A stretch of 20,000 nt of DNA from the NCBI GenBank assembly GCA_050230475.1, contig JBFLGF010000118.1:45286-65285 (forward strand), given 5' to 3'. Shown in pieces: positions 1 through 19,531 of this stretch (position 1 is the stretch's first letter; each line of letters starts with the position of its first letter). The translations under genes were made by a program, and so were the position numbers. This DNA is from Ancylonema sp. Taxonomy: Eukaryota. The notes below the pieces were generated by a model. The model saw nothing but the letters and a program-made list of their open reading frames with translations. It was not told the DNA's origin and searched no databases.

Positions 1-865
1 TACTTAGGTTTTTATGAGAAAATAGCATCTTGTGTAAAATAGCATCTTGTCTAAAATTTGATGTATTTTCCTTCCCGTCAATATGAATGAAGAGAAGTCG
101 ACCATATTTTCCTCTGCGGTTCTTTTGGTGGGTGTGCGTTCGTGGTTGACGTTTCTTTTTGTGTACCGTGATGAGGGAGGCAAGTACAACGTACATCCGC
201 GGGGTAGCCCCGGCGGTGTACTATTTGAAGAGGGAAAGACGCTCCTCAAACCAAATTTACAAAAATGATTTCATGTTTTTCACCTGCACCCGTTTCAGCG
301 CTAGCCTCCCCTCTCCATCCTCAGCGATCAACATACTGCAACTGACGCACCGCTTCGAAGATCGGCCCTTGTTGCAGCCAAGACAGTGGAGTAGAGACCC
401 GTTCGAGACGTAGACCGGAGGGTGTTCTATGATCCAGTCCTCTCATCTCCTATCCCCATTCCTGCAGATGTGTCGGAAGAAGACCAAGAGCGTTTGGGAG
501 AGCCACTAGCGTGACAACCACTTCTAGTCCCTGTAGAGCCAGTCCGGATACCAGTGTGAGCACCTCTGAGAGGTCCTGAGCGAGGCCCCGACTACGGTCG
601 GTCAGGTACAACTCTCAAGATGCCTCTAAGCTTTCAAAAGAGGGAGTTTAACGATTTGGAACCAGGTACGACTTTAGAGAACGAACCCTCTGCAGATGTG
701 TTACCAATTGAACCGAGCATGCATGCATTAAGTAGAGTTGCAGGTCGGGCAAAGGCAACAAAAGTAGTAGCAAGTCAAGTCAAGAGATCTGTAAAATCGG
801 TAGGGAAGTGTTAGGCACGTCGAGTGTAGCGAGTCCCCTAGCTGGAGACTCTCAGACACACGAGG

Positions 866-1300
866 TGGCTAACCTTGCCTGTGTCAACACTTAGACATAT
901 TTGGCACGAAGCAGCCATCCATCCTGGGGTCAGGGTTTGGCTCTTCTCCCAAGTATATTATTTGAGGGAAAAGAAGGGACAAAACACAAAACAGGAGAGA
1001 CAACTGCCAGAAGCAGTTTGAGCTCGGGGAGAACAGTAAAGCGGTCCCTCTGGGTCCAAGGCCAATTTCCGTTTTTATCTGAAAAAGGGGCGTGGGCAGT
1101 GTCTAACCAGCCATGCGTCAGGATGACCCAGGACCACTTGGCACAAAGCACTAATCCATCTTGGGACCACGGCTTGGCTCTTCTCCCACGCAAGGTACTT
1201 GAGGGAGAAAAAGGTGAGACAGTTATTCAACTGCAGCACAAACTGAGCTCAAGTAGTACAGGACGGTTGGGACCTTGGGCCTCGGAGCAGCTTGTATATA
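866..1300 (+). repeat. Diverged in-frame tandem duplication (~237 bp / 79 aa period) within the polyprotein
   Basis: LARSSHPSWGQGLALLPSILFEGKEG at 901 versus LAQSTNPSWDHGLALLPRKVLEGEKG at 1138; both copies share TTGGCTCTTCTCCCA. Confidence 0.8.
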
Positions 1301-1437
1301 TGCCAGGCAAGAAAACGACATTAGTAGCACCAAGATTTAGCGGGGATGAAGTAGATGAAGATGCTATGTTTGTATAAGATATTCAGGCTCCTAGACAAGA
1401 GTGGTACCAACAGTTTGTCCAGGCTCCAGGGTCCAAC

Positions 1438-1896
1438 TTGTCATACTTGAGTAGTGCTCTGGCCCATAACTTGTTGCTCGATCCCAGCTTTGCAATTCCA
1501 GGTCCCCCTCCTCTGCGCGACATCGTCATGTGGAAGCACACCACCATTCCCAATTTAGCTGGCGTTTTCACCATCGAAGGCCATGCACCACAAGGGGAGT
1601 GCGTCTTGGAATCAGGTGCGAGCTTCGTCATGATAGGTAAGAGGGTGGCAGATTCATTGGGTCTGCATGCAAAGGATTTGGATGAAGGGATCACTTATAC
1701 GGTTGCCTCGAGTGCTTCTCCTAAGTGTAGGGGGGTGACCAAAAAGAAACTTGCTATCTGCCTACTCCCAGGCACTCCATATCAGGTCACAACACATCTG
1801 CATGTACTGGTAGACAATGCTACCTCGTATGATATATTGGTGGGTGCTCATCTCGTCAATCGTGAAATTGTCCTGATCAACTACCGAGACTCTTAG
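1438..1896 (+). pseudogene. Retropepsin-like (retroviral-type) aspartic protease domain, degenerate
   Basis: CVLESGASFVMI (D-S-G-A motif with D>E at 1609-1611), followed ~70 aa later by the typical YDILVG motif (1828-1845). Confidence 0.75.
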
Positions 1897-2604
1897 TGGA
1901 AGGTAGAACTAAAGTGGGCAACTACGGGAAAACGCAAAGTGCGTTTGACCATTGACCATTGACCATTGACCTTTATGTGACTCCAGCGCAGCTGAGAGAG
2001 AAGAAGAATGCAAGATTGCAAGGCTATGTGGGAGGACCGTCCGACTACTTCCCCAACGCGACCCCAGGGCAAGTGAAAGCGTTGCCGCACCCGGCATACC
2101 AGTGGCACGCACGTGAGGAGGAAGAAGAACGCGCCCGATAAGAGGAGTGGGCTTGCAATGCCCATGATATCCTTACCACCTGGCTGCTTGCATCTCCTGC
2201 TTTGCATCTGCACAATATGCGGTTAGCAGAGTTAAAGGAACATTTCGAGCTCATCAGGATGCATGTGGTCAATTTACGCAACTAGACAATGCAGAATAGT
2301 ATAGGCATCCGAGAGGGCCCAAAGTCTTTCATTTGGACTCACAAATAGCGTGTCTTGCGTACAACCCTTCCTTTTTACGAACAGTTGCAGAGGGACATCG
2401 CCATCAAAGAAGCCGAGGCTGAGGACGAACGCCGGGCTCGTGGCATCATCCTTCCTGCAACACCACCACCAGTGATCCACCTGTCAGAGTTTTAGCAGGA
2501 AATGACACGCCTGGACCAACAATCTGCGATACGTCGCACCTTTCAACGCACTCAGGCCCAGAGGGAGGTGATCGTGAACCTGGACCGCACCCGTCGCAGA
2601 GCCC

Positions 2605-3444
2605 TTGCACAGCCCCTACTGCTCCTCTCCCACCCACATTGGACAAGAGTGTGATCATGTGGAGCCCATCGACACAACTGTCCGTCGCCAGCCAGCTCAC
2701 CAGCAAGGCGTTCACATCTTCGAAGTTTGTGGCGGTGTGGGCTGCCCCAAGTTGATGGAGGCCATGGGAGCAGGTGTTGCGGTCAGACAGTACACCTATG
2801 TGGATATTGGCCGCAACGAGCATGTCGTGGTTCGCGCTTTCCTCGCCAAGGTTCACCTGCAGTATCCTCACCTCTTGCCCCAATCAGCGATTCAAGGGTT
2901 TGACTCTCGCCTTGATCAAAATGTATATCGCATCTCTGCTACTGACATGGTCAACCTCACTGCCCGCCATGGTTTTATTGACATGTTTGGATGTGGCTTT
3001 CCTTGCCAACCATACAACAATGCTGGTAGGGGTAGAGGTAGAAATGACCCGCGACATGGTGTTTTCTTTGAAATGGTCCGTCTGCTCAAGTGAAGTCAAC
3101 AGGAGCAGGATGGTCGTCTAGTTCTGTACCTCTTAGAAAATGTGCATATCCGTCAAGATACGCCAGAGGAGGTTAAGGATGGTGATGAACACGTCATGGC
3201 TTTACTGAGGCAACCTAGCATCCGGCTAGATGCATGTTCGGTAGGGGGTCTCAGTCACCGCTCGCGTAGGTACTGGACTAACATGTTGTCTCCTCGGGAG
3301 CTCAAGCGTTTTGTTCCCCCTAACCACCTCTTGGATCCTCTGTCCTCAGCCCTTGAGCTCCACCATGAACTAGCTCCCTACGAATCGACAGACCAGCCCC
3401 CTCATCGCCGTGTCAACATTCGAGGTCGCCCCCGTCGGGTGCTG
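2605..3444 (+). pseudogene. C5-cytosine DNA methyltransferase domain (DNMT3-like), with one internal stop and truncated before motifs IX-X
   Basis: Motif I-like IFEVCGGVG (~2716-2742), motif II-like YTYVDI, catalytic motif IV GFPCQ (Cys 3004-3006), motif VI LLENV (ENV 3136-3144, same frame after TGA 3091-93) and motif VIII-like LDACSVGGLSHRSRRYWTN (~3226-3282), which resembles DNMT3 DA..VS.AHRARYFWGN. Confidence 0.9.
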
Positions 3445-4215
3445 TGTTAGACTCGTATGGAATGACGAGTCTAGCTTTTATAAGCAATCTCACACCACAA
3501 ATAAATGCATATGGAAATAGGAAGTGCAAGTAAAGATAAGGATAATACATGAATTGATCACGATACTCAATGAGCACTACTTAAGGGTTTAAATACTAGT
3601 CTGAAGCTAGGGTCGGAACCGAACTCGTTGTAAACGAAAATTGAACATACCTCGGTATAAGAACAAGCTGGAAGTTAAGACCTAATAAAGGACTGACTGA
3701 TGATGAAGTGTAATAATCAAAGAAGGGCTTAACAACGTGTAGGAATATTCGGATAGCCATGCCTTATGCTTGCTAGTCCAGTTGTGACCGTTTACTCTAA
3801 CCGGGCGCCATATTCCTAGATGTGCTTGTATGCGGTGCCGGGCACGATTGTGTCCGGTCACCTGATCTGTTGTCACGCTTGATGTCGACAGTTAGAGTCG
3901 TTATTAGCGGTTGGCATGCTTGACGTGTCTTGATTGGTTCGATCTAGTCATGTCAGAGTGTCCGGCATGTGCCGTTGACACATAGATGAGTTGTCACTCA
4001 AGGATAGGCCGACGGTCAATTGTACCGACCGTCGGCAGACAACGATCTGTAAAGCGCATCGGGTATTACCATCCCCGATGCGATCACAATGTAATTAATT
4101 CGTTCCACACACGCAACTCTTGTCTCGTTGATCATCAGTGATAGAGATCCTTTGCGTACGGTTCGTTTTGTCGCCCACCAAAAATCTCCTGCACGTAATC
4201 ACTCAAAAGCTTAGA
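3445..4215 (+). repeat. Putative 5' LTR (~770 bp) of copia element A
   Basis: Begins TGTTAG exactly where the DNMT coding signal stops and base composition changes. Ends immediately before the PBS. No second LTR copy is present in the window to confirm it. Confidence 0.7.
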
Positions 4216-4229
4216 GGTTATGGGCCCAC
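4216..4229 (+). other. Primer-binding site, half-tRNA-iMet type
   Basis: GGTTATGGGCCCAC is complementary to the anticodon-arm region (GTGGGCCCATAACC) of plant initiator tRNA-Met, like the Drosophila copia / Ty5 type of PBS. Confidence 0.85.
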
Positions 4230-4473
4230 GTGCGGTCTAGTTTAGACGCCGTGTTGGTTAAGAACTACAAGCTCCCGCGATTCGCTGCGAAGATCTCTTG
4301 AACGGTAAATTGTGTCTGTAAGGGCAAATTTAGCCGTGGTTGTTAAGTACTGCTAGACGTAATTTCGACATTGCGTTGCACGAAATCGAGTTGAGAGCTG
4401 CATTGCAGGAATTGCACTGAGAGCTAAAGCTGCGTGAGAATTCTCATAAAATCCTACACAATTGTTGCTATAG

Positions 4474-5205
4474 ATGTCGGATAAATCTCAAATTCCGAAG
4501 TTTACTGGAGCATATTGTACAGGATGGGCCTTCAAGGTCAAGTATGGGTTAGCAGACAAAAAGCTGCATCGTGTGGTCATGGATTGGGACAGCCTGCTGC
4601 GGCGGCGTCGTCCATATGTTATTTTGCCATTGACCCCAGACAATGAGCTGCAGTTTACTACTAGGGGGGTCGACGTTGATGTCGAGAGAAGGACCAGGGA
4701 GCAGCGGATTTCCTAGCAGCTGCCACAGCTCGAGAAATGGGACGAGGATAATCTGGCTGCAATGGCGTACATCCAGAAGCATTTGGGTCCCTCGGAGCTG
4801 ACACACGTCACGGACTGCACGACAGTTGCCGGGATGTAGGAGGCACTGAAGACTTTTTATATGGTGCACGGAGCGATCGAGATCGCCAACACCGAGGCGC
4901 TGCTGAGCGCTATTATTCAGGCGGAGGCTGAAGACCTCAACGTCTACGTGAAGCGGCTGCAGCAGATCCATCAGGACCTGAAGAACCCGGGTGCGCCGGT
5001 GACGCCAATGAAGTAGGCTATTAATTTGCTGAACTCCCTCAACACTCACTACAGCCCCATGGTGTCGACTCTCATGCCATGGTCGGAAATCATCACCGCA
5101 TCTTTTCACGATTCCGCACATTGTGAACGCGCTGCTGCGCGACGACGTTCGCAAGGAGCTGAATGAGCGGAAGAGGGGGGCGCTGCCAGGAGGTCACCAC
5201 GCAAC
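4474..5205 (+). pseudogene. Copia-type gag, degenerate
   Basis: Starts MSDKSQIPKFTG..GWAFKVKYGL..KKL. Continues in frame past TAG stops (4714, 4837, 5014) as EKWDEDNLAAMAYIQKHL..ELTHVTDCTTVAGM*EALKTFY..EDLNVYVKRLQQIHQDL..AINLLNSLNTHYSPMVSTL, a UBN2-like gag pattern. Frameshift near 5090-5110. Confidence 0.8.
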
Positions 5206-8200
5206 TATGGTAGAGAAAAGGTCTGATCGTAGTCCTCTCCCTCTACTTGACTGACTCCCTTAGCCACAACTCTTGCTTTGTATTTTTCTACAGAACCATC
5301 TGCATTGACATTGATCCTGAACACCCACTTTGACTTCACAACTTTCTTCCCCTTCGGCCTTGGCACAAGTCGATAGACCTGGTTTTCTTGCTGCAGCCAT
5401 TGCAGCTTTCCACTCAGCTGCTTGCGGGCTGTTAAGAGCTTCCTCAACAATCGTCGGTGTCTTTATCTCACTTTCCAAGTTGGCAACAACAGCAGCAACA
5501 AATGTGTTGGGATGCATTCCTCTGTTCTCCCTTGCAGATCGACGAATAGGCTCAGGATCATCGATAGAAGTTTCTGGAAAGTTGTCGGTCACGCCAAGAA
5601 AAGGAGTAGCATCATCTGGATACCATTCTGGACCATCTTCTAGAATCTTCGTCTTCATCGTCTCCACTAGAATTGCTGACAAGTTCTGGAAGATCTGCAC
5701 TGTGAGGAAGAGGAGATCTCGGAAGCTGTGGCAATGGATTCCGACAGCATCAGGGATCTCTTCATCGACAGAATTTGGATCGCCATAGGCAGGTTGCCCA
5801 CCTCCAGAAATACCCCCTCCGAGACCAACACTACCCCCCCCTCTTGCTCAGCTGCATCCAGATCTGGCCATGACATTCTTGTTTCTGCAACTGGCTCATG
5901 CACTCTTGCCTTCTTGCCAATTTTCTGACCCCTCCACCAGCTTTGCTTGACAGATTCATCGAAGTCTGCATGACTGACCAGTGCCAACGTTGTGTACTTT
6001 GTTCGTTGCAGGATCCCAGACTCGGTAGCAAGGACTGTCGGGTGTCGGGATTCCTAACACACCAAGCCAAGCCAGCGCACTCATTTTTCCAGCCCGATCT
6101 TGTTTCTCCAGTCGCACATAAACTTTGCAGCCGAATGATCGAAGATGATCAACCTTTGGAACTTCTCCTGACCACATCTCCTCTGGAGTTTTTGGAAGTC
6201 CGCTGACTTGACATCGATTTCTGAGGTATGAAGCTAAGGAGATTGCTTCTGCCCACAGACCAAGAGGAAGTTGCATGTGCAAAAACATAGAGCGAGCCCT
6301 GTTTGCAACGGACGATTCATGCGTTCTGTGATTGCATTGCCTTGAGGAGTGTTTGGCGGAGTTGTCTCATGTCTGATGCTTCTGTTTTTTAGCCACTTCT
6401 GCAGACCACCATCGATAAACTCTCCTCCTCGATCTGATCTCAGATTTTTAACAAGTTTCCTAGCTTGTCTTTCCCAGATTGCGATCCATTGCTTCAGACG
6501 AGGAGCTGCATCATCCTTTGCTGCGAAGTATTTCCACCCAGGATTTTCGGCTGTATTCATCGACGAGCACCATGTTGTACACTCCTCCCCCTATTGATGC
6601 TGGATTGAACGGCCCTGCCAAGTCCACCGACACTCTTCCCACGCAGACTTGTTCTCCCTCACCAGCTTCTCGTCGAGGATGAGGTTTGTCGTGTGCCTTC
6701 CCCAGCTTGCACCCTTCACAGTTTTGCAGAACTCCTGAGATGCCTCCTTCCAGTCCTCGTACAAGATGTTGTCGTGCCACATTTTTGAGCACTCTCTCAT
6801 TTGCATGCCCAAGTCTTGTGTGGAGGAGGTTGATTTCGACAGCAGCTACAACAGCTTCCCCTTCAGTAAGTTGCTGATGTCGAACCGGTGTGCAGATTAG
6901 AGTTTTTCGACCTGTCGATGTTTCGTGCAGAGTGCAGACTTGTTGTCCAAATTTGTTGTAAACTATAATGATGCCACCAGCTTTTCCACTGCAAGTGTAA
7001 GACCACCCTGCTTCTCTGGCTTTCTGACCGCTGAACAAATTAATGCGCATCCCAGGAATGTACAAACATTTCTTGAGTGTTACTTCTCCACACTCTCCCT
7101 CGGTATTCAGCTCAATTGTTCCCCACTGCTTCACTCGCACACTTCCGACCAGATGATGCATGATGACCTCGTGTGGAATGTCTTCGAGGATTTTGAAAAG
7201 ATTTCTCTGTCCACAAGAATGGTGACTGGAACCATCGTCGAAAAGGAAATCTTTGTCCGCATCATCATTATCTGCAACATTTCCATCAAAGATTTCAGCG
7301 ATGATAGCTTCTCCATGACCACAGCTGCTTTCCTCCTCATCGATTTCACCAACGTAAGCTGCTTGTCTCCCAGTGCGTACCCCCTTTCTTTGCCTTCGTG
7401 GAGCTTCGTTTTTCTTGTCGAAACACGTGAATTCCACATGACCAATGGCTCCACAATATCTGCATTCGTTCTTGGAGCAGTCTCTGCTGTAGTGACCTGT
7501 CTCTCCACAAGTATAGCAGTGCCCTCCACTTGATCCACTGCCTCCACCTGTGCCTCCACGACCACCTCTGATTCCACGATTATCTGCTGAATACCCCCTG
7601 AATGTACCCCTACCTCCACGATTGATGATACCACCACCTCTGCCTTGGCTTGAAAAAAATTGTTGCGCTGACCACTTAGCATAGTTTGCCTCTACAACTA
7701 GTGCCTCAGCATCTTTGACATCCTTTTCTTTCTTGTCGTCCAGCTCATCCATTCCCATCTGCCTCCAGATCCAGCTGATCCCAGGTGCCTCTTTCTGTCC
7801 ATAATAAAGCTTCTTCAACATGCCGTATTTTGTTCTTGACATGCGAGCAAACAATGCCATCACCTGATCTTCTGCGTTGACTGTAAATTTTTGATGTACA
7901 CACTCTCTGATGATCGACATAAAAGTATTCTTGATATCTCTGACTGGCATCTTTTCATCGATCTTGAAAGATTTCAGCTTTTCTTTTGCAATCTGTCGAA
8001 GTTCTGGAGACACCTTGTCATACTCCTCTGTCAGATAGTCCCACATCGCCGTTGGATCTCGTTCAAATTGTTCAAGTGATGTAGCGATGTCGTCACTGAC
8101 AAATTGCATGAGTAGCATGACTGCCTTCTTTGAACTTTTGCGGAAGCTTCTGACATCAAGTGTATACTGCTCCATTTCTGCTTCATTTGTTGGCCAGTGT

Positions 8201-8382
8201 TGATCATCATATCTGGCTGTAACCTCAGGTGGAATAGTCTCTGTTCCTTTGCAGATCTCAAGACACTCAGCATCATCAAGAGTAGCTGAGGCCTTAGATC
8301 TCCATGTTTGAAAGGTAACTTTATCTCCATCCAGAATGCAGTACTGTGCTCTGATACCACTGTGAGTGCTTTCTTCTGCCAT
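5205..8382 (-). pseudogene. Copia gag-pol polyprotein, frameshifted from integrase onward and truncated early in RT
   Basis: Open ~620 aa from ATG 8382: gag, an RGG-rich tract, two CCHC knuckles (7477-7518, 7423-7464), protease FLFDDGSSHH, HTRLGH...CEGCKLGK, VSVDLAGP and LVDEYSR. Frameshifted pieces follow: LRSDRGGEF, PQGNAITERMNR, LWAEAISLASYLRNR, HLRSFGCKVYV, EEALNSPQAAEWKAAM, and RT KWVFRI...KYKARVVAKGVSQVEGEDYDQTFS. Confidence 0.92.
8348..8359 (-). other. Primer-binding site (tRNA-iMet 3' end)
   Basis: Minus strand TGGTATCAGAGC, 1 nt downstream of an LTR-like ...CTCACA end at 8361. Confidence 0.92.
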
Positions 8383-8802
8383 CGATGCAAGAATAAAGCA
8401 CAATTCTTCTCTCAGACAAATCGACAGATCACGTCATTACAAACGTTGACACAACAAAAGTGCAAGTTTGAAGTAGAAAGTATTGATTCTGATTAAGGAA
8501 TTCAGCATGCAAGCTCAGACCTAGTACAGTCGATTGTTGTCTGGTCAACGAATCTGCCGGTATCGAAACTACATCGTCAATTGCCAATCATATCTAAGCA
8601 TTCTGCCACAACAACAAGTTCTTATCGACACTTGTGCCAGATGGCCAAGTAATCATCAAAACAAGGACGTCGGCCTGCAGCCGGCCTGCAGCCGGCCTGC
8701 CGCCTGCATTTGCTGCTGAATAACGACAAAACTAAAGCTAAATTCCCGGTATTGCTAACGATATAACGAAAAACTAACATTTTCCTTGTTGTGTTCTTCA
8801 CA
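8361..8802 (-). repeat. Putative 5' LTR (~440-460 bp) of copia element B
   Basis: Minus-strand 3' end ...ACTCACA abuts the PBS. A matching TGTGA start lies at 8802 (alternative 8817). Contains a tandem CGGCCTGCAGC repeat at ~8671-8708. Confidence 0.65.
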
Positions 8803-9206
8803 TTATGTCCCATCACATATATTTACACCTGTTGGTGTGCGTCTTTTTCTGTTTTTATTTTTTATGCTGGCTCTGGATTGTTCAGAATCCGGGGAACAGA
8901 TGACTCGACCAAATCGGTCCTGGACCAAACCGAGACCACACAGTCAACCGTGGAAACCCGTGGAAACCTGTGGAAGAAATATTTGTTTTCCCTGCCCACG
9001 TTTTAACCAAAAAACTTTCGGATTACTTTTGTAAAATTGTTGTTGTTTGTTGTAATACTTAGTGTGGCTAACCGAGTCCACATCGGGCCAGATTCGGATG
9101 GGCAGTAGACCAAATAGTCCCGGGTCGGACCCCAAGAATAAAAGGAAGAAAAATAGTTTATTTGATGACAAATTGTTTGACGAGTATATTTTTTTTATTG
9201 TATATA

Positions 9207-9477
9207 CCGTACTGGGCACCGTAGATGATTTCTGTTTTTTCAAAACGAATTAATTTGTCAATGATGTGTGAGAAAGATTCCCGTGATCCGGTAGTTATTA
9301 TTAATGATTTTTGGCAATGATTTCTGGTAACCTACATACAAAATTCAAAACAAATCCAAAAGTGGTATTAATATCAATGATTTTTGGTTAATGATTCCGA
9401 CCTCATAGGTATTAATATAAATGATTGATTTCGGGTTTCAATAATTAATTAAAAATCATTTACGGTGCCCAGTACGG
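9207..9477. mobile_element. MITE, Tc1/mariner(pogo)-like non-autonomous DNA transposon
   Basis: TIR CCGTACTGGGCACCGTAGATGATTT (9207-9231) pairs with 9453-9477 with one mismatch. Flanked by TA (TATA) on both sides; AT-rich interior with repeated AATGATT motifs. Confidence 0.85.
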
Positions 9478-10149
9478 TATAACCTCAGATGATTTTCGCC
9501 TTAAGGATCTGAGTCCAGACCCGGAACGGATCCGGATCGATCGCCAGGTCGGAGGTTCCCTAGTCGAACGAGGACCAACTATGATGCACACCATCTCGTG
9601 TGTGCTGACATATGACGAAGTGTCTAAGTTTCCACACGAAGTGTCTAAGTGGCTTGTTCTAATCAGGAATACACCTTATCAAATGCAGAAACACAAATGT
9701 TCAGATGTAGTCCAAGCCCTTGGAAGCTTGAATGGCTCTGTTGGACTCCGAATATGGATAGTTTGATTGGCATTGTTCCATTTCGCATCCCGCACATTTG
9801 AACTCCAAAGTCACATCACTTTACAGAGATGCTTCAGCCTGACTACTCCCTGCCTGCCCAAACCCCTCGGAAATATGTATGGTTACATGACACAGCCAAT
9901 ATACTGAATTGCCCTGACATATTATGCGAGCTTCGTAGTACCATACAATGTGATTGCATGGAATGGTCTCCCAGAATTGCAGGAAGTTAAGCAGGGGAAC
10001 ACATTTACAGAGTACAGACAAAAACAAGAAGACCAAGACCCGTATTCCCAAATTGCAGTAATGTATCGGCACATGACGGGAGCACTTTGTGTGCGAGCTA
10101 CCTTATACACAGTCTATGCCTTGATGTCTAGAGGTCAAATGTCTACCAT

Positions 10150-10997
10150 TTACAACTTGCCCGTGGGGCCAGGGGTGGGGGGGCCCTGGGGACCCTTTTT
10201 GATGGGAAGCAAGTCTTGGCCGGTGGTGGCACCGAAGTAACCAAGAGTCCCAGCACCTCCCAGAACCAAAAACTTCAAGAGAATGCCTCTCTTTGTGAAA
10301 GCTCCAGCGAATGTCTCAAAGAATTTGGACTGCGGGCAGAGTACAAAGGAATGATAGAGCTTAGTGCCTAATCGCTTGATAGACACTATGTTCCTGTTGC
10401 AATTTTTGAAGGTATTGAGTAACACAGGTACGCGAGGCTCCAAATGGCAACTATTCCGGGACTCTTCGTCGTACAAACTCGAAACGACACAGCTAGCATC
10501 CAGATGATGCCCTAATCGAATGCTCGTGAGAATACTCATGGGACGCACTTCCGCTTCAATAAGCCATGTCGTAGCGCAGTTGGTAAATTTCCTTATCGTG
10601 TGAATGAGGCAGTTCGGGGAGCCACATAGTGTGGAGTTGAATACAGAGCAACTCCAACGTGAATACCCGAGTCTCTATCAAGGTTAATAACAAATACTTG
10701 GGGAGTATCTGGATCCCTCCCTCACCACTCACTTTGGTATACTGCCCACTATGTGTCTCATACCTGAAGGCCATTGTAGGGTGCGGGTCCGTCCTGACCA
10801 TACAGGTCCCAAGCACCTGTGGTGTTCTTCACATCCTTCAGATCAAAGTAAACGCTTTCATCTCCGTACTTAGCGCGGGGAGCTGCCAGCCGCAGGCTTG
10901 ATCGCTTGGTTGCCGGGCAGCTGGTCTTCACGGACACCTTCTGTCCGCAGAAGCTGCTTGCGGCAATAGTAGTAGAGGCAAGAGCAAGGGAAGCCAT
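10150..10997 (-). CDS. psaH: Photosystem I reaction centre subunit VI (PsaH), chloroplast precursor, 137 aa
   Basis: Exons 10997-10764 and 10329-10150, with a GT-AG intron at 10763-10330. A Ser/Ala/Thr-rich transit peptide is followed by [53 protein letters not shown]...[16 protein letters not shown], the PsaH signature. Confidence 0.97.
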
Positions 10998-11918
10998 TTG
11001 AGTGATGGGCTGTGAGTATGGACCCTTGAATTCTTGAGATTCAACGAGAAAGGTGCGATGAATATTGCTGTAATCAACTGCGCAGACCCAAAAATTTCAC
11101 CATCAGAAATTGTCCCGAGTTTGGGTGCTCCAGGCTGGATAGGGCTGCTGTTGTGTGAACCAATCAGCGTCGAGTCTCCGCGCGCCAAATCCAGTTGCTC
11201 CCGATGCTCGATGCTCGTCCACGTTGGCATTTGTTATGACCGTCCGTTGGCTTCCGCCACGGACGCGGATGGCTACCGCGCGGCTGGCAAAGAGACAATT
11301 GTCGGTATACATAGTATTGTCGGTATATATAATATGTAGCGGTTGCTTGATAATCCAATTGTCATCACATGTGACAAGTATGTAAACTTGCACTGATGTA
11401 GCGGTGGTTTACTGTGGTTTACTGGCATTTCATACGTACCGCTGAATTCCGACGTGAAACCATGGCGCGTGGTCCAGGTCACTCATACTTAACCATTTAA
11501 ACCGCGACCGATATGTCTATTGAGTTTCACACAGAAAATCACCATATGTGTGTGCAAGGTAATTCTCAAATATACAATTTAATTGGTTATTATTTGTGAT
11601 TAGTACTCCACATATCCGATAAGCCGGCTCCTTCTTTTTTCTGTTTTTTTTTACACATACATAAATACTATTTTCGAGGCAGTAGAGCATCTACGACAGC
11701 TTTATTGTTCTGGATAACGAGAGAAAAAAAGTGTGGATGTGTTACGGTAGGGGCATCCATTAGTGTTATCGAATCCTCTATTGATGTGGAAGTGTGTTAT
11801 TCTGCTTAAGACGAGGCTAGAGAAGCCAGAATATAATGATACAGCTCATCAGATGTTTGTGACGTGCTGCGAGGCTTCGTGTCTGAGTTACATTTCTCCG
11901 TAGCTGTATCTAGGCGAA

Positions 11919-14900
11919 ATGGATGCCAAGAGCCGTCCAGCAGTGGTGATTGACAATGGTACAGGGTGAGCACTGCGTCTTCCCACAGCACATGATCAAA
12001 CACAATCACAGCCGATTTCTTGGCAACATCTCGGTTGGTATAGCCTTTCCAGCAAGAAAACAGACACAGAATGCAGAAACCGAAAGACAATGAAAGTGAA
12101 TGGGTGGGTGTTCTTCTGTGTAAGTCAGTGCGTTATTGACGTTTCTAGTTGCTTCACCGCCCCTTTTGACCATTGTGGTAGGTTGGCACAATTTCGGTTA
12201 CATGAATTTCGATTTTTGTGCAGTTACACGAAGATGGGTTATGCTGGCAACGTGGAGCCATCCTTCATTGTACCTACTGTGGTCGCGCTTAACGAGAATT
12301 TCAGCTCCATTAGTTCGGGACACCAAGGAGGAAGGTCCAGTGCAACAGCTGCAGCCCTTCATAGTGCTGGGGTGATGGCAGATCTAGACTTCTTTATTGG
12401 CGAAGAAGCTCTGGCTGCTGCCCGGCGAGGTTCCTACGTACTAAACAGCCCTATCAAGCATGGACAGGTATGCGTTAGAGGTGGTTTGCTTGAATCGTTA
12501 CCTGCACTCGTCCCTGCGCATCAAGTGCTAGATTTGATTGAAAGTGAGCTCATAAAGCTACAGGTTGGAGTCACCTGGCCACCGCATGCAGCACATCCTC
12601 TGAACTTTGTGGCCATATATAAAACTTGGAGACTTCGTATGGGTGCACTCGGGCCTGATATCAATTGCGCAACAGAAAGATGTTCTCGTTTCTCAGCTAG
12701 ATGGATGAGTATGTTTTCGGGGAGCAGGTGGAGAATTGGGATTCGATGGAGAAGTTTTGGCAGCAATGTATTTTCAATTACCTACGATGCGATCCGGAGG
12801 ACCACTATTTCCTTCTCACTGAGAGTCCTCTCACCAATCCAGAGAACCGGGAATACACGGCGGAGGTCATGTTTGAAACGTGAGACCTGATCCTTGTTTT
12901 CCTTGCCTTGAGAAACGTGGCTTCTTCCTGCAATTGCGTGCTCTCTTTGAGTCAGACAGGAACGTTTGTGGGTCAATGCTCAGGAGGCTTGATTAGGGTG
13001 AGGTTACCTCCTGCAGTTTGCTGCTGAATAGTTTGCTGTTGATGGTTACCCACTGCGTGTTACCCAGTTACGCTTTAATGCACGTTGTTACCCGAAACTG
13101 AAGTCACCCAATTTAGCTCATGGGTTGAGAACGAACATGTTCAACGCAGTCAAACATTGTACCAGAAAACCTCAATCACATCACACCCTCGTGCGTCTGC
13201 AGGTTCAATGTGGAGGGTCTGTACATCGCTGTCCAAGCTGTACTCGCCCTTGCTGCCGGTTACACGGCAGACAAGGTATGCAACGTGTGCAATGTTGAAC
13301 ACGTTTGGTTGCGACGGTGGGGCTGGGGCCTACAAAGATCTGGGCTGGCGTTTGCAATCACCCTTTATTAGCTTCATTTTGTGTGTGACCGAAAGTGCAA
13401 CAATAACTTTTTATATTAGTTAACATAAATCACAAACATGGTCCTAACTACTTTGAAATCCATAATCACATTATCCTATTTGGTGACTGGCTATATTGTG
13501 TTACAACTCCTTAGATCCAGTGTCTGTGGTGGTCACGAGACGAGTGATGTCCGTTGGCATCTGACGGCACACACTACTTCCTCGGGAGCTTCCATTACTC
13601 TGCATGTTATGCATCATCAGAATTAACCAGTACCTCGGAGAGCAGAAAGCTATAAGTTTCTGAGACCTACATCCGAGTAGCAGGGACGGATATCCTACTA
13701 TCTGTCATCCCCCTTTAAAGCCTGAAACAATCTTGTACTTCCGGTGACATAAACGGTCAGATCGGTTTCCTCGCTGCAGGCTCCGTTGACGGGTGTCGTG
13801 GTCGATGCTGGGGAGGGTGTGACACATGTCGTCCCTGTGGCCGACGGATACGTGATCGGCAGTTCCATCAAGAGCATTCCCATAGCGGGACGAGACATCA
13901 CCTCCTTTGTTCAGCAACTCATGCGGGTGTGTATAATCCCGAGTAGATATGGATATGATTGAAAAGTATGGACTGGGCGCCAACTTTCATGAAGGAAGCT
14001 GTGTATGTGACGTGGATTTAGACAAATTGCTATTGGCATATGACGGCAAAGCTGCGTTGAAGCTAATTTCACTGACTTCTGTTCATTGTTCAACCCGTAC
14101 ATCCCTAAGAACCAAACAGGGCACACGAAAATGCACACAACATGATGCAATCAATGTGATGTCTCATCCTGAGAGGGCGTGACTGGACCGGACCTAATTT
14201 GCATAACTGTTGGACCCTGGAATGACTTGAGTCTCTCTCTGTCCGAGTTTCCAGTGACACTTACTGACATACTTCACAGCACCATCGCAGGACAGAGGGG
14301 AGGCCGTGCCGCCGGACTACGCTATGGATGTGGCTCGAAAAGTGAAGGAGACCCATGGGTACACTTGTTCAGACATCGTGAAGGTAAGGCGTCACTTGAA
14401 CAATCAATCGCGTGGCTCAGTTTAGTCTGAACGTATGTGCCCACTTAGAGTCCTCAAATACACAAGGTGTCAACAAATCGCCGACGGCTGCTAGGGATTC
14501 AGGTGCTATACTTTGTCGGGGTTTTGGATAAATTTCTAGGCTTAGTGGCCACAGCTAGCTAGTTAGTGGCCATAGAATGTTCTCCTGTCATGCAGAATTA
14601 CATGAATCTTCTCTCGCCTGAAATGGAGGTTTTGTTGCGACGTAGAGACTGTCAGATTCACGGTACCTTCTCTACATAAGGAGAAGTCGATTTGATTACA
14701 AACTTGTCATGGACTATGGTGTGCATTGGGGTGTGACCTCAGGAATACGCAAAGCATGATCAAGAACCTGCAAAATATAGGAAGGTGTGGACGGGCAAAC
14801 ATCACAAAACTGGGGCTACATACAGCTGTGACATTGGCTACGAACGCTTCCTGGCGCCAGAGGTATGCCACTATCAGTAACAGGTCGTGGTGAGGATGGT

Positions 14901-16430
14901 CGGGTACTCCTTGTCCTCTACTCATAGGCAATGGGCTGGAAAGGTGGCAGGAAAAGCTCACGAATTATAAATTTAAAAGGCATCTATCAAGGTAGCAAAT
15001 ATTACGACGGTGTGTGTCGCTATGCTGGACTAGTTTGACATGCTGGCCAGCGCGGTCAACAACAGACTGTCTTACCACGGAGGCTTGGAATGAATTAGAC
15101 GGTCTGAGGAGAGCTGTCACATGCAACCTCATATATGTTTATCGAGCTTTACGCAGTAGGTTATCATCATGCAACATGAAACGTTCGCAGAGTTGAAAAG
15201 CTCCTGTACCTATTGAAAATGACACACGGGATCTGCTGTTGTATATGTGTCAGATATTCTTCAATCCCGAGATTTACAGCAGCGATTTCACCACTCCCCT
15301 GCCTCAAGTCGTGGATGACTGTGTACACAGTGCCCCCATTGACACCCGCAGAGCTCTCTACAAGGTACTTACCTTCTCAACCACTCACGCGGCATGAAGT
15401 CAATCGTGTGCTTAGCAGCACACCTGTACCTTGGAGGCCGCCCACTTCACAGATATCACAAGATTTCAGACAACGTGGGAAGAACCTCATTTCTTCCATA
15501 GCAGAGGTGCTGACCTGGTGGTGACAATCTGTGCGTAGAACATTGTGCTCTCGGGCGGGTCAACGTTGTTCAAAGACTTTGGGAGACGTCTGCAGCGCGA
15601 TATCAAGAAATTGGTGGATGTTAGAGTGGCTGGTCTGCACAGGGGGCAACAGGAGGCAGGAACCAAGGTGAAGCCACCTGCCAGCCTGTCTCAACACTTT
15701 TGTGCGTGCAGTTGAGCATTGAATCTGAACTGTGCTCTCTGCCGTGACAAAAACTGTAATAGTAGCAGAGCAATAGAGCAATAGAGCAATAGAGCAATAG
15801 AGCAATAGAGCAATAGAGCAATAGAGCAACAGAGCAATAGAACGATAGAGCAATAGAGCAATAGAGCAATAGAGCAACAGAGCAATAGAGCAACAGAACA
15901 GGGCATTTGTAGAATGCGAAAGCAAACAATGGAAGCAGCTTTGTATGTTCTCTCTCGACCAGCTTACTCCGGACCTTTTCTGAAAATAAGTCGATTGGAA
16001 AATTTGTATCGAAGAGTACAAAGCCGTTCCATTACAGCGCTAGGAAATCATTCATTTATTTGTTTTGACACTCTGGGCTGCAGCAGAATGGAGTGGAAGT
16101 GGCGGTGGTGAGTCACCCGATGCAGAGATTTGGAGTTTGGTTTGGTGGGTCTGTGCTTGCCTCGACCCCTGACTTTTATACGGTGAGATTTTGAACAAAG
16201 GCGTATTGAAACGGGTGTAGAGAGCCATCAAATCCCTGGAGTCTTATTTTCTGTTTTTTTTTTCTTTTTTTTTCTTTTAATTCTCACGAGTAGATGTCCA
16301 ATTTTCTAATTTTGTGTGGTTGAGTGCTTGTTAATATTTTTGTCTGCAGGCATCTCATTCCAAAGCGGACTACTGGGAATACGGCCCAGGAATATGTAGA
16401 ACCAACCCTGTCTTCAAAGGAGTGTTGTAA
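11919..16430 (+). CDS. ARP3: Actin-related protein 3 (Arp2/3 complex subunit), ~430-431 aa, 11 exons
   Basis: Exons 11919-11965, 12224-12467, 12728-12879, 13203-13275, 13780-13926, 14291-14383, 14743-14862, 15254-15364, 15539-15667, 16084(or 16087)-16182 and 16350-16430. All introns are GT-AG and the frame is continuous. Motifs: [121 protein letters not shown] and [10 protein letters not shown]. Confidence 0.97.
15767..15898. repeat. Octamer tandem repeat (AGAGCAAT)n, ~16 units, in ARP3 intron 9
   Basis: Read directly; a few variant units (AGAGCAAC, AGAACGAT). Confidence 0.97.
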
Positions 16431-19090: not shown

Positions 19091-19531
19091 GGGACATGAT
19101 GCGTACAGACCCCCTCCTGTTAACTGCGTACAGACCCCCGTAATATCGAGAAAATGGCAAAACTCATAATGTCGCTGTACGTAGGGGCCATGGCCGTCCA
19201 AACCGTGGTTTCGTTATGGGAGTTGTTCGTACATCGACGCCCTACGAATTATCCAGACGCCCCTTTCCACTGACGGGGACCGTAGAGTCGGTTCGAGTAG
19301 ATTTGGTGGCCTGTGAGCCGTCGGACTGTCGTACGGATTATTCTTTTATTCTTTTAGATTCGACCGATTCTCGTTGGCCGACGTGGCTGTCGCTGACGCC
19401 AGTACCGGTGACGGAGATTTGCGCATAACGAAAAATCACGGTTTGGACGGCCATGGCCCCTGTGTACAGCGACATTATGAGTTTTGCCGTTTTCCCGCCA
19501 TTACGGGGGGTCTGTACGCAGTTAGTCGCCC
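19091..19531. mobile_element. Long-TIR (foldback/MITE-like) non-autonomous DNA transposon
   Basis: ~100-bp arms at 19121-19218 and 19424-19524 are near-perfect reverse complements (TAACTGCGTACAGACCCCC...GCAAAACTCATAATGTCGCTGTAC...GGGGCCATGGCCGTCCAAACCGTG...TTCGTTATG). Outer ends read GGG...CCC, flanked by TTTTA on both sides. Confidence 0.85.

Follow-up and report, generated by a model that had tools for sequence, protein, structure and literature searches.

The closest described relative of the element considered here is KnitGypsy-Dnmt3, a DNMT3-bearing Gypsy retrotransposon of Klebsormidium nitens (de Mendoza et al., 2018; PMC5890265). According to the accessible portion of that paper, the K. 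nitens enzyme produced no methylation in yeast, an outcome called inconclusive, and only the Symbiodinium DIRS enzymes were active, methylating CG in yeast (PMC5890265). RNA methylation or self-limiting roles are raised there by the authors, DIRS elements with DNMT3 are described, and DIRS-like repeats are noted in the K. nitens element (PMC5890265). Of two further accounts, again as far as their accessible text goes, one names streptophytes and dinoflagellates as the only groups with reports of retrotransposon DNMT3 (PMC12344493), and the other states that methylase-coding transposons are found in charophytes and green algae but are lacking in land plants such as tracheophytes (PMC6338049). 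The K. nitens protein GAQ93235.1 (P0158) presumably exemplifies KnitGypsy-Dnmt3, and it is in this protein that domain order is compared below.

The DNA analyzed here, called the window, is a stretch of 20,000 nucleotides from an Ancylonema sp. assembly (contig JBFLGF010000118.1, positions 45,286 to 65,285). Close to its start lies what is very likely the dead remnant, truncated on both sides, of a multi-copy Ty3/Gypsy-type retrotransposon, with a DNMT3-like domain directly after the protease in Pol, whose enzyme in the living element likely methylated the element's own cDNA. As judged by sequence comparison, the element belongs to the published KnitGypsy-Dnmt3 kind as a new but broken member, because its closest relatives (metagenome locus L032 and GAQ93235.1) have the same protease-DNMT3 order. 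The features of the window are collected in Table 1.

Table 1. Position, strand and supporting evidence of the features of the element copy and of its neighbors in the window.
Feature	Position	Strand	Evidence
Internal fragment of multi-copy DNMT3-bearing Ty3/Gypsy-type element, cut at both ends	280..3445	+	Contig depth, upstream-running contigs, LTR start
Degenerate coding region upstream, in frame 2 then frame 1; probably the end of Gag and the Gag-protease linker	281..1545	+	Family coverage; Gag label inferred from position only
Two copies of a 77-nt unit (901-977 and 1138-1214), 78% alike, 237 nt apart, in frame	901..1214	+	Repeat search
Retropepsin-type aspartic protease with Glu for the catalytic Asp	1570..1845	+	PF13650; L032 match; alignment with L032, P0119 and P0158
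Short tandem repeat, 7-nt unit, at the frame change	1945..1971	+	Sequence
Protease-methyltransferase linker (frame 3), five stops	1956..2660	+	Overlapping contigs from other copies span it
DNMT3-like C5 cytosine methyltransferase, motifs I-VIII and part of the target-recognition domain	2686..3444	+	Pfam, family HMM, alignment
Inserted very high-copy Copia, LTR from 3446, decayed gag 4474-5217; cuts the methyltransferase, not part of the element	3446..5217	+	Loose ends, depth, Retrotran_gag_2 E 3.6e-14
Second Copia with gag, protease, integrase and RT start; not part of the element	5205..8758	-	Pfam matches on five frames; loose ends at 8758
psaH	11000-10153	-	Translation comparison

The copy is dead. 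Stops interrupt its three carrying frames at 892, 1375, 1894, 2139, 2283, 2346, 2493 and 3091, with more upstream of 850, and the frame changes near 1950 and again at 2600-2660. These stops and frameshifts, together with the missing methyltransferase motifs IX-X, make it inactive in every step of the cycle proposed below. Neither the upstream region nor the linker between protease and methyltransferase matched any Pfam family. The linker brings the distance from the protease motif to motif I to 371 codons, against 226-266 in P0158, L032 and P0119, about 105-145 codons longer, and the repeat at the first frame change corresponds to 14 and 17 gap letters in two contigs of other copies. RT, RNase H and integrase are absent, probably because the Copia LTR cuts the copy at 3445; no Gypsy RT, RNase H or PHD finger of the element was found in the window, and the sole integrase match there is that of a Copia. 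Both ends of the copy are missing, and no LTR of the DNMT3 element was seen.

An earlier note, made from the sequence alone, had recognized a retropepsin by VLESGAS and YDILVG, and this is borne out: the two motifs lie at 1603-1623 and 1828-1845, in a frame that matches Asp_protease_2 (PF13650) with E 2.5e-5 and 25.3 bits against a cut-off of 24.3. An aspartic protease stands at the start of Pol, as in Ty3/Gypsy elements, with its catalytic Asp replaced by Glu; Asp is found at this position in all three aligned relatives (L032, P0119 and P0158). The window protease is 37% identical to that of L032 (E 1e-11), which is the only one of 55 related metagenome loci to match it at E<=1e-3. Among the proteins of the 150 best relatives from a later profile search, two match it, P0119 and P0158.

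The same note had placed an intron-free C5 methyltransferase about 800 bp further on, on the same strand. The interval from YDILVG to motif I is 877 bp, and the domain aligns to its relatives with no intron-sized gap, so that an intron-free DNMT3 lies inside Gypsy Pol, as in KnitGypsy-Dnmt3. Its motifs are EVCGGVG (2722-2742), GFPCQ (2995-3009), ENV (3136-3144) and DA..HRSRRYWTN (3229-3282), and a single TGA interrupts it at 3091. Read through this stop as X, a comparison that the note had suggested, the domain matches PF00145 with E 5e-8 (33.2 bits against a cut-off of 22). An HMM built from 27 relatives, with the window row excluded, finds the domain in frame +1 with E 8.5e-56; all remaining frames of the window stay at E 0.26 or above. 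Motifs I, IV (PC), VI (ENV) and VIII (RxR) of a C5 methyltransferase are present. Motifs IX and X are gone because the domain breaks off at 3444, immediately ahead of a Pro-Thr that at least 90% of the rows retain; in the relatives, the domain runs on through the part aligned with the C-terminus of DNMT3A. None of the 28 rows varies at the catalytic Cys, at the EN of motif VI or at the arginines of motif VIII, although motif VIII was the search pattern and its invariance is thus built in. This alignment (A1) left out 19 of the 55 loci, which were too short or broken, and 9 near-duplicates.

Compared with solved structures, the family profile finds DNMT3A first (E 7.6e-19), then other DNMT3 chains, DRM2 (3e-11) and HhaI (9e-9), and none of the 53 matches is to a chain named DNMT1, MET1 or CMT. 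An AlphaFold model of the natural L032 domain (pLDDT 91, pTM 0.89) retrieved DNMT3A, 3B and 3C in all rows listed of a fold search. By this profile ranking and the fold search with L032, the enzyme resembles DNMT3 more closely than it does DRM, DNMT1/MET1/CMT or bacterial enzymes, and its motifs are not rearranged. In the ESM Atlas, the only clusters retrieved were generic PF00145 ones, at 0.94.

Evidence on other copies comes from the contigs of one sample, probably the window's own source, and so provides no independent support. The stretch is present in two of the three runs of that sample, and the contig counts are from run X1. Between 150 and 3490, 1,130 contigs align, 119 of them at 99% identity or more, 212 at 95-99%, 451 at 90-95% and 348 below 90%; 799 are thus less than 95% alike, with up to 30 contigs at one listed place. 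Summed contig depth is 115 in the bin 150-261 and 2,528-15,243 (median 7,091) in the other 29 of 30 bins, which places the element about 50-60 fold above single-copy contigs at 115-140. Depth is no copy number, and the family is therefore described only as having tens of copies; dispersed multiple copies, as expected of Ty3/Gypsy elements, are seen in this one sample. Diverged contigs overlap from 1140 to 2601, another spans 2801-3159, and depth stays above 2,800 in between, and the arrangement of protease, linker and DNMT is therefore common to the family and no accident of the locus. Upstream of 280, 12 contigs extend with a common sequence (agreement 0.87), which means that this copy has lost its 5′ end as well.

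At its 3′ end, where the Copia LTR starts at 3445/3446, the flanks that contigs connect to 3444/3445 differ from one another (9 and 7 contigs, agreement 0.44-0.47), and among the 6 listed of 118 loose ends no contig of another copy continues past 3445. Other contigs carry sense codons at the window stops 1375, 2139 and 3091 (5, 6 and 6 contigs), which may hint at purifying selection on the DNMT. The two Copia elements of 3446-8758 have been cut and joined tail to tail near 5210, the second being cut in its RT, and their summed depth is 150,000 to 2.2 million, compared with about 130 for single-copy DNA.

Relatives were found with a degenerate pattern drawn from motif VIII of the window, which yielded the 55 metagenome loci. 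The window methyltransferase matches 54 of them, best L032 (33%, E 6e-34). By Pfam and tBLASTn, the relatives are Ty3/Gypsy Pol proteins with a C-terminal PHD finger, and they come in two orders: the DNMT precedes RT in six loci (L025, L026, L032, L033, L036 and L048), and it follows RNase H and/or directly precedes integrase in 39, with the remaining 10 in neither count. The RT-RNase H-integrase order that is absent from the cut window copy is present in its closest relatives L032, L033 and L036. The earlier note's central claim, that the locus is a relic of a DNMT3-bearing retrotransposon, is upheld by a domain that is multi-copy and unspliced and whose relatives lie inside Ty3/Gypsy Pol polyproteins. 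None of the findings that the note had named as speaking against this (a single-copy, spliced orthologue of a host DNMT3, or copies never linked to protease, RT or LTRs) holds.

The second order, RT-RNase H-DNMT3-integrase-PHD, often fills one open frame of 2,000-3,300 aa (L002, L003, L005, L008, L010, L011, L014, L019, L039, L041, L043 and others), and motif IV reads GWEC in many of these relatives, with Glu in the position of the Pro that normally precedes the catalytic Cys, and with the other motifs kept. In both orders, a PHD finger follows integrase (L032:596-3736, L033:5768-11491, L002:1400-7480 and others), and a chromatin reader and a methylation writer would therefore be joined in one polyprotein. 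One element with the DNMT before RT, seen in L026:1-12073 and L033:126-6206, has 67% GC and a first frame of 2,027 aa in which no Pfam family was found; L026 has identical ends of 133 nt, as in a circular or collapsed assembly. A repeat search of eight related loci, which are collapsed or partial contigs, found a flanking LTR pair in none.

A profile search of 1.84 billion representatives returned 539 clusters at E<=1e-30 and 2,329 at 1e-10. The 150 best proteins comprise 101 with the second order, 2 with protease-DNMT and 47 without a neighboring domain match, shares that are biased because the profile is weighted to the second order. Of 20 proteins looked up, three have a named source, K. 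nitens, Scenedesmus and Cymbomonas. GAQ93235.1 is a partial zinc knuckle-protease-DNMT protein, and Scenedesmus sp. PABB004 KAF8056149.1 (P0032) has the order RT-RH-DNMT-INT-PHD. As GAQ93235.1 already has the order of the window, the suggestion of an undescribed family is not sustained at the level of the kind. A Cymbomonas protein, KAK3250090.1 (P0137), has protease, DNMT and integrase with no RT or RNase H match, and may represent a deleted element or a faulty gene model. Some searches were empty: a word-based protein search with the window DNMT, insensitive as later searches showed, found none among 1,102 longer and 339 near-length candidates; none of the 166 metagenome and 5 viral-contig pattern matches obtained with the N-terminal half was confirmed; and the motif pattern had no match in viral contigs.

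Relatives of the element are far more widespread than in published accounts. In a literature search that left most subscription papers outside its reach, no published account was found of the RNase H-DNMT3-integrase order, nor of such elements in Zygnematophyceae.

The two orders are also separated in three quick trees, all built without bootstrap, outgroup or host DNMTs. In the first DNMT tree (34 rows), the window row groups with the elements that have DNMT before RT (SH-aLRT 96), and it does so again in a second tree of 30 rows to which K. nitens was added and from which L024 (frameshifted), L026 (long branch) and 7 close rows were left out (SH-aLRT 92). Its exact place is unsure because its branch is long (2.2-2.9). 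The RT-RNase H tree, with 20 of the 55 loci, splits the two orders as the DNMT trees do, 3 against 17 (SH-aLRT 98). As estimated from these alignments, the trees show two lineages and, being unrooted, would fit one or two captures of a DNMT. A broader reading, which we hold tentatively and rate somewhat below even, is that DNMT3-bearing Gypsy elements form one old green-plant lineage, older than the chlorophyte-streptophyte split, with a methylation writer and a PHD reader on the integrase. The DNMT3 would then have moved within Pol: streptophyte elements, that of the window among them, would have it before RT, and chlorophyte elements, for example that of Scenedesmus, between RNase H and integrase. 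If this is true, the arrangement is no oddity of Klebsormidium, and the window adds a new streptophyte host, tens of copies and a longer linker.

The host can be approached through the genes beside the element, psaH and, after it on the plus strand, a gene that we take from its translation to be ARP3. The nearest relatives of the psaH product, 90-91% identical, are metagenome and sequencing-run proteins, and the nearest that bears a plant name is from Closterium, with 50 of 77 residues identical in exon 1. A stretch of 17 residues is the same in the window and Closterium; among the matches listed, six chains, which we presume to be of land plants, have Lys at a Glu of this stretch. In exon 2, 43 of 59 residues are identical to a land-plant chain compared with 34 of 59 to Closterium, so that the first exon is alga-like and the second land-plant-like. 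Taken together, psaH points to a streptophyte host, probably an alga. A land-plant host, for instance a hornwort, is unsupported but keeps some probability, and an extension of host range to land plants, one of two that the earlier note had raised, is likewise unsupported. The window further contains an 8-nt-unit tandem array of about 17 copies (15761-15896) inside an intron of the ARP3-like gene, and two short MITE-like elements with terminal inverted repeats, at 9203-9481 (29 nt, 97%) and 19121-19524 (77 nt, 91%). No Rfam match was found in the window.

In the usual Ty3/Gypsy cycle, Pol is packaged and then cut by its own protease. The family to which the window copy belongs would also have had RT, RNase H, integrase and a PHD finger downstream, parts that this copy presumably lost through the insertion of a Copia at 3445, followed by a deletion that brought this Copia against the second one near 5210. 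The polyprotein would have been packaged and cut by its own protease, and with DNMT3 between protease and RT in the packaged Pol, the enzyme would therefore sit beside new cDNA. It would add 5mC to this cDNA, most likely at CG, before integration; new copies would arrive marked like host DNA, and the PHD finger of the integrase would steer insertion. In the same element, the DNMT3 domain may alternatively be no cDNA methylase at all, and may be kept to bind DNA or RNA or to dampen the element's activity, an explanation that we consider unlikely but of some weight. CpG observed/expected is 0.63 in the element, 0.59 in the minus-strand Copia and 0.70 in host genes, no depletion beyond the neighbors; there is no scar of self-methylation, because the value of the element is no lower than that of the Copia and is close to that of host genes. 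The GWEC found for PC in motif IV of many relatives is a further point in its favor, as are the inactivity of the K. nitens domain in yeast and the other roles its authors raise in the accessible text (PMC5890265). Against it, rows that are only about 25-40% identical all retain the catalytic Cys, the EN and the SAM-binding glycines, and the related Symbiodinium domains do methylate CG in yeast, according to the same portion of that paper (PMC5890265).

The absence of RT from the window, the linker that is longer than those of relatives and the Cymbomonas model without an RT match would also suit a non-autonomous protease-DNMT family lacking RT, perhaps a deletion product of the lineage with DNMT after RNase H, moved by the enzymes of another element. 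This is improbable, since the LTR cut at 3445 is enough to account for the loss of the 3′ part, all relatives that match the window protease have DNMT before RT (1 of 55 loci and 2 of 150 proteins), and both DNMT trees place the window on their side. A DIRS-type element with a tyrosine recombinase, like SymbioDIRS-Dnmt3, is brought to mind by the DIRS elements with DNMT3 and by the DIRS-like repeats of the K. nitens element, both in the accessible text (PMC5890265), but we rate it as very improbable. The loci of the relatives have Gypsy RT, RNase H and rve integrase, and a tyrosine recombinase is absent from the window frames, where the 3′ part is missing, and from 27 frames of the relatives' loci. 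To our knowledge DIRS elements have no aspartic protease, and this too is counted against such an origin. That DNMT3 is the nearest solved structure would fit a retrocopy or pseudogene of a host DNMT3 lying by chance beside a transposon protease. Depth is high from the protease through the linker to the DNMT, diverged contigs overlap throughout, and the domain scores E 8.5e-56 to a retroelement family with the same insertions relative to DNMT3A. Unless the contigs belong to another organism in the sample, this multi-copy linkage already refutes a retrocopy, and its likelihood is close to nil. The reading of the locus as a relic of a Gypsy element that likely methylated its own cDNA is thus the one adopted here.

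The locus itself is ordinary debris of a published kind, and its value is that of a marker, which places tens of family copies in the genome of a further streptophyte. The 2018 work, in which the single K. nitens test gave no activity, left open how a retrotransposon benefits from carrying a DNMT3, and the hundreds of clusters in two fixed domain orders offer many naturally open enzymes for testing this. The wider spread and the second domain order are more interesting than the locus, and concern its relatives more than the locus itself.

Among known systems, the catalytic domain of human DNMT3A/DNMT3B is the top profile and fold match (TM 0.60-0.67 for the L032 domain, normalized by the query) and has the same unrearranged motif order. 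It differs in that identity is about 22%, and the element family lacks PWWP and ADD, is embedded in Pol, and has insertions after motif II and in the target-recognition domain. L032 (Ga0207930_1001165) is the best match for both domains of the window (33% for the DNMT, 37% for the protease), with protease then DNMT in one frame. Unlike the window copy, it is nearly whole, with a Gag frame, PR-DNMT, one stop and RT-RH-INT-PHD, and its catalytic Asp is present. Retrotransposons with a cytosine methyltransferase in Pol also include SymbioDIRS-Dnmt3, which differs by its tyrosine recombinase (accessible text of PMC5890265), and the EpiLTRs, whose DNMTs, in the available part of their description, are sister to DNMT4 and accompanied by an adenine methyltransferase and a chromodomain, and in Cymbomonas lie at the 3′ end of pol (bioRxiv 10.64898/2026.05.21.726589). 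The nearest described counterpart is GAQ93235.1, which shares with the window an intron-free DNMT3-like domain in Gypsy Pol downstream of the protease (in GAQ93235.1 also of a zinc knuckle), a place on the same side of the DNMT tree and a streptophyte host. Identity between the two is low (30% over 237 columns for the DNMT, 24% for the protease), and the window therefore represents a family separate from that of GAQ93235.1, with a linker of 371 instead of 226 codons, in a different host organism, whose lineage is less certain, and in a copy that is dead and cut.
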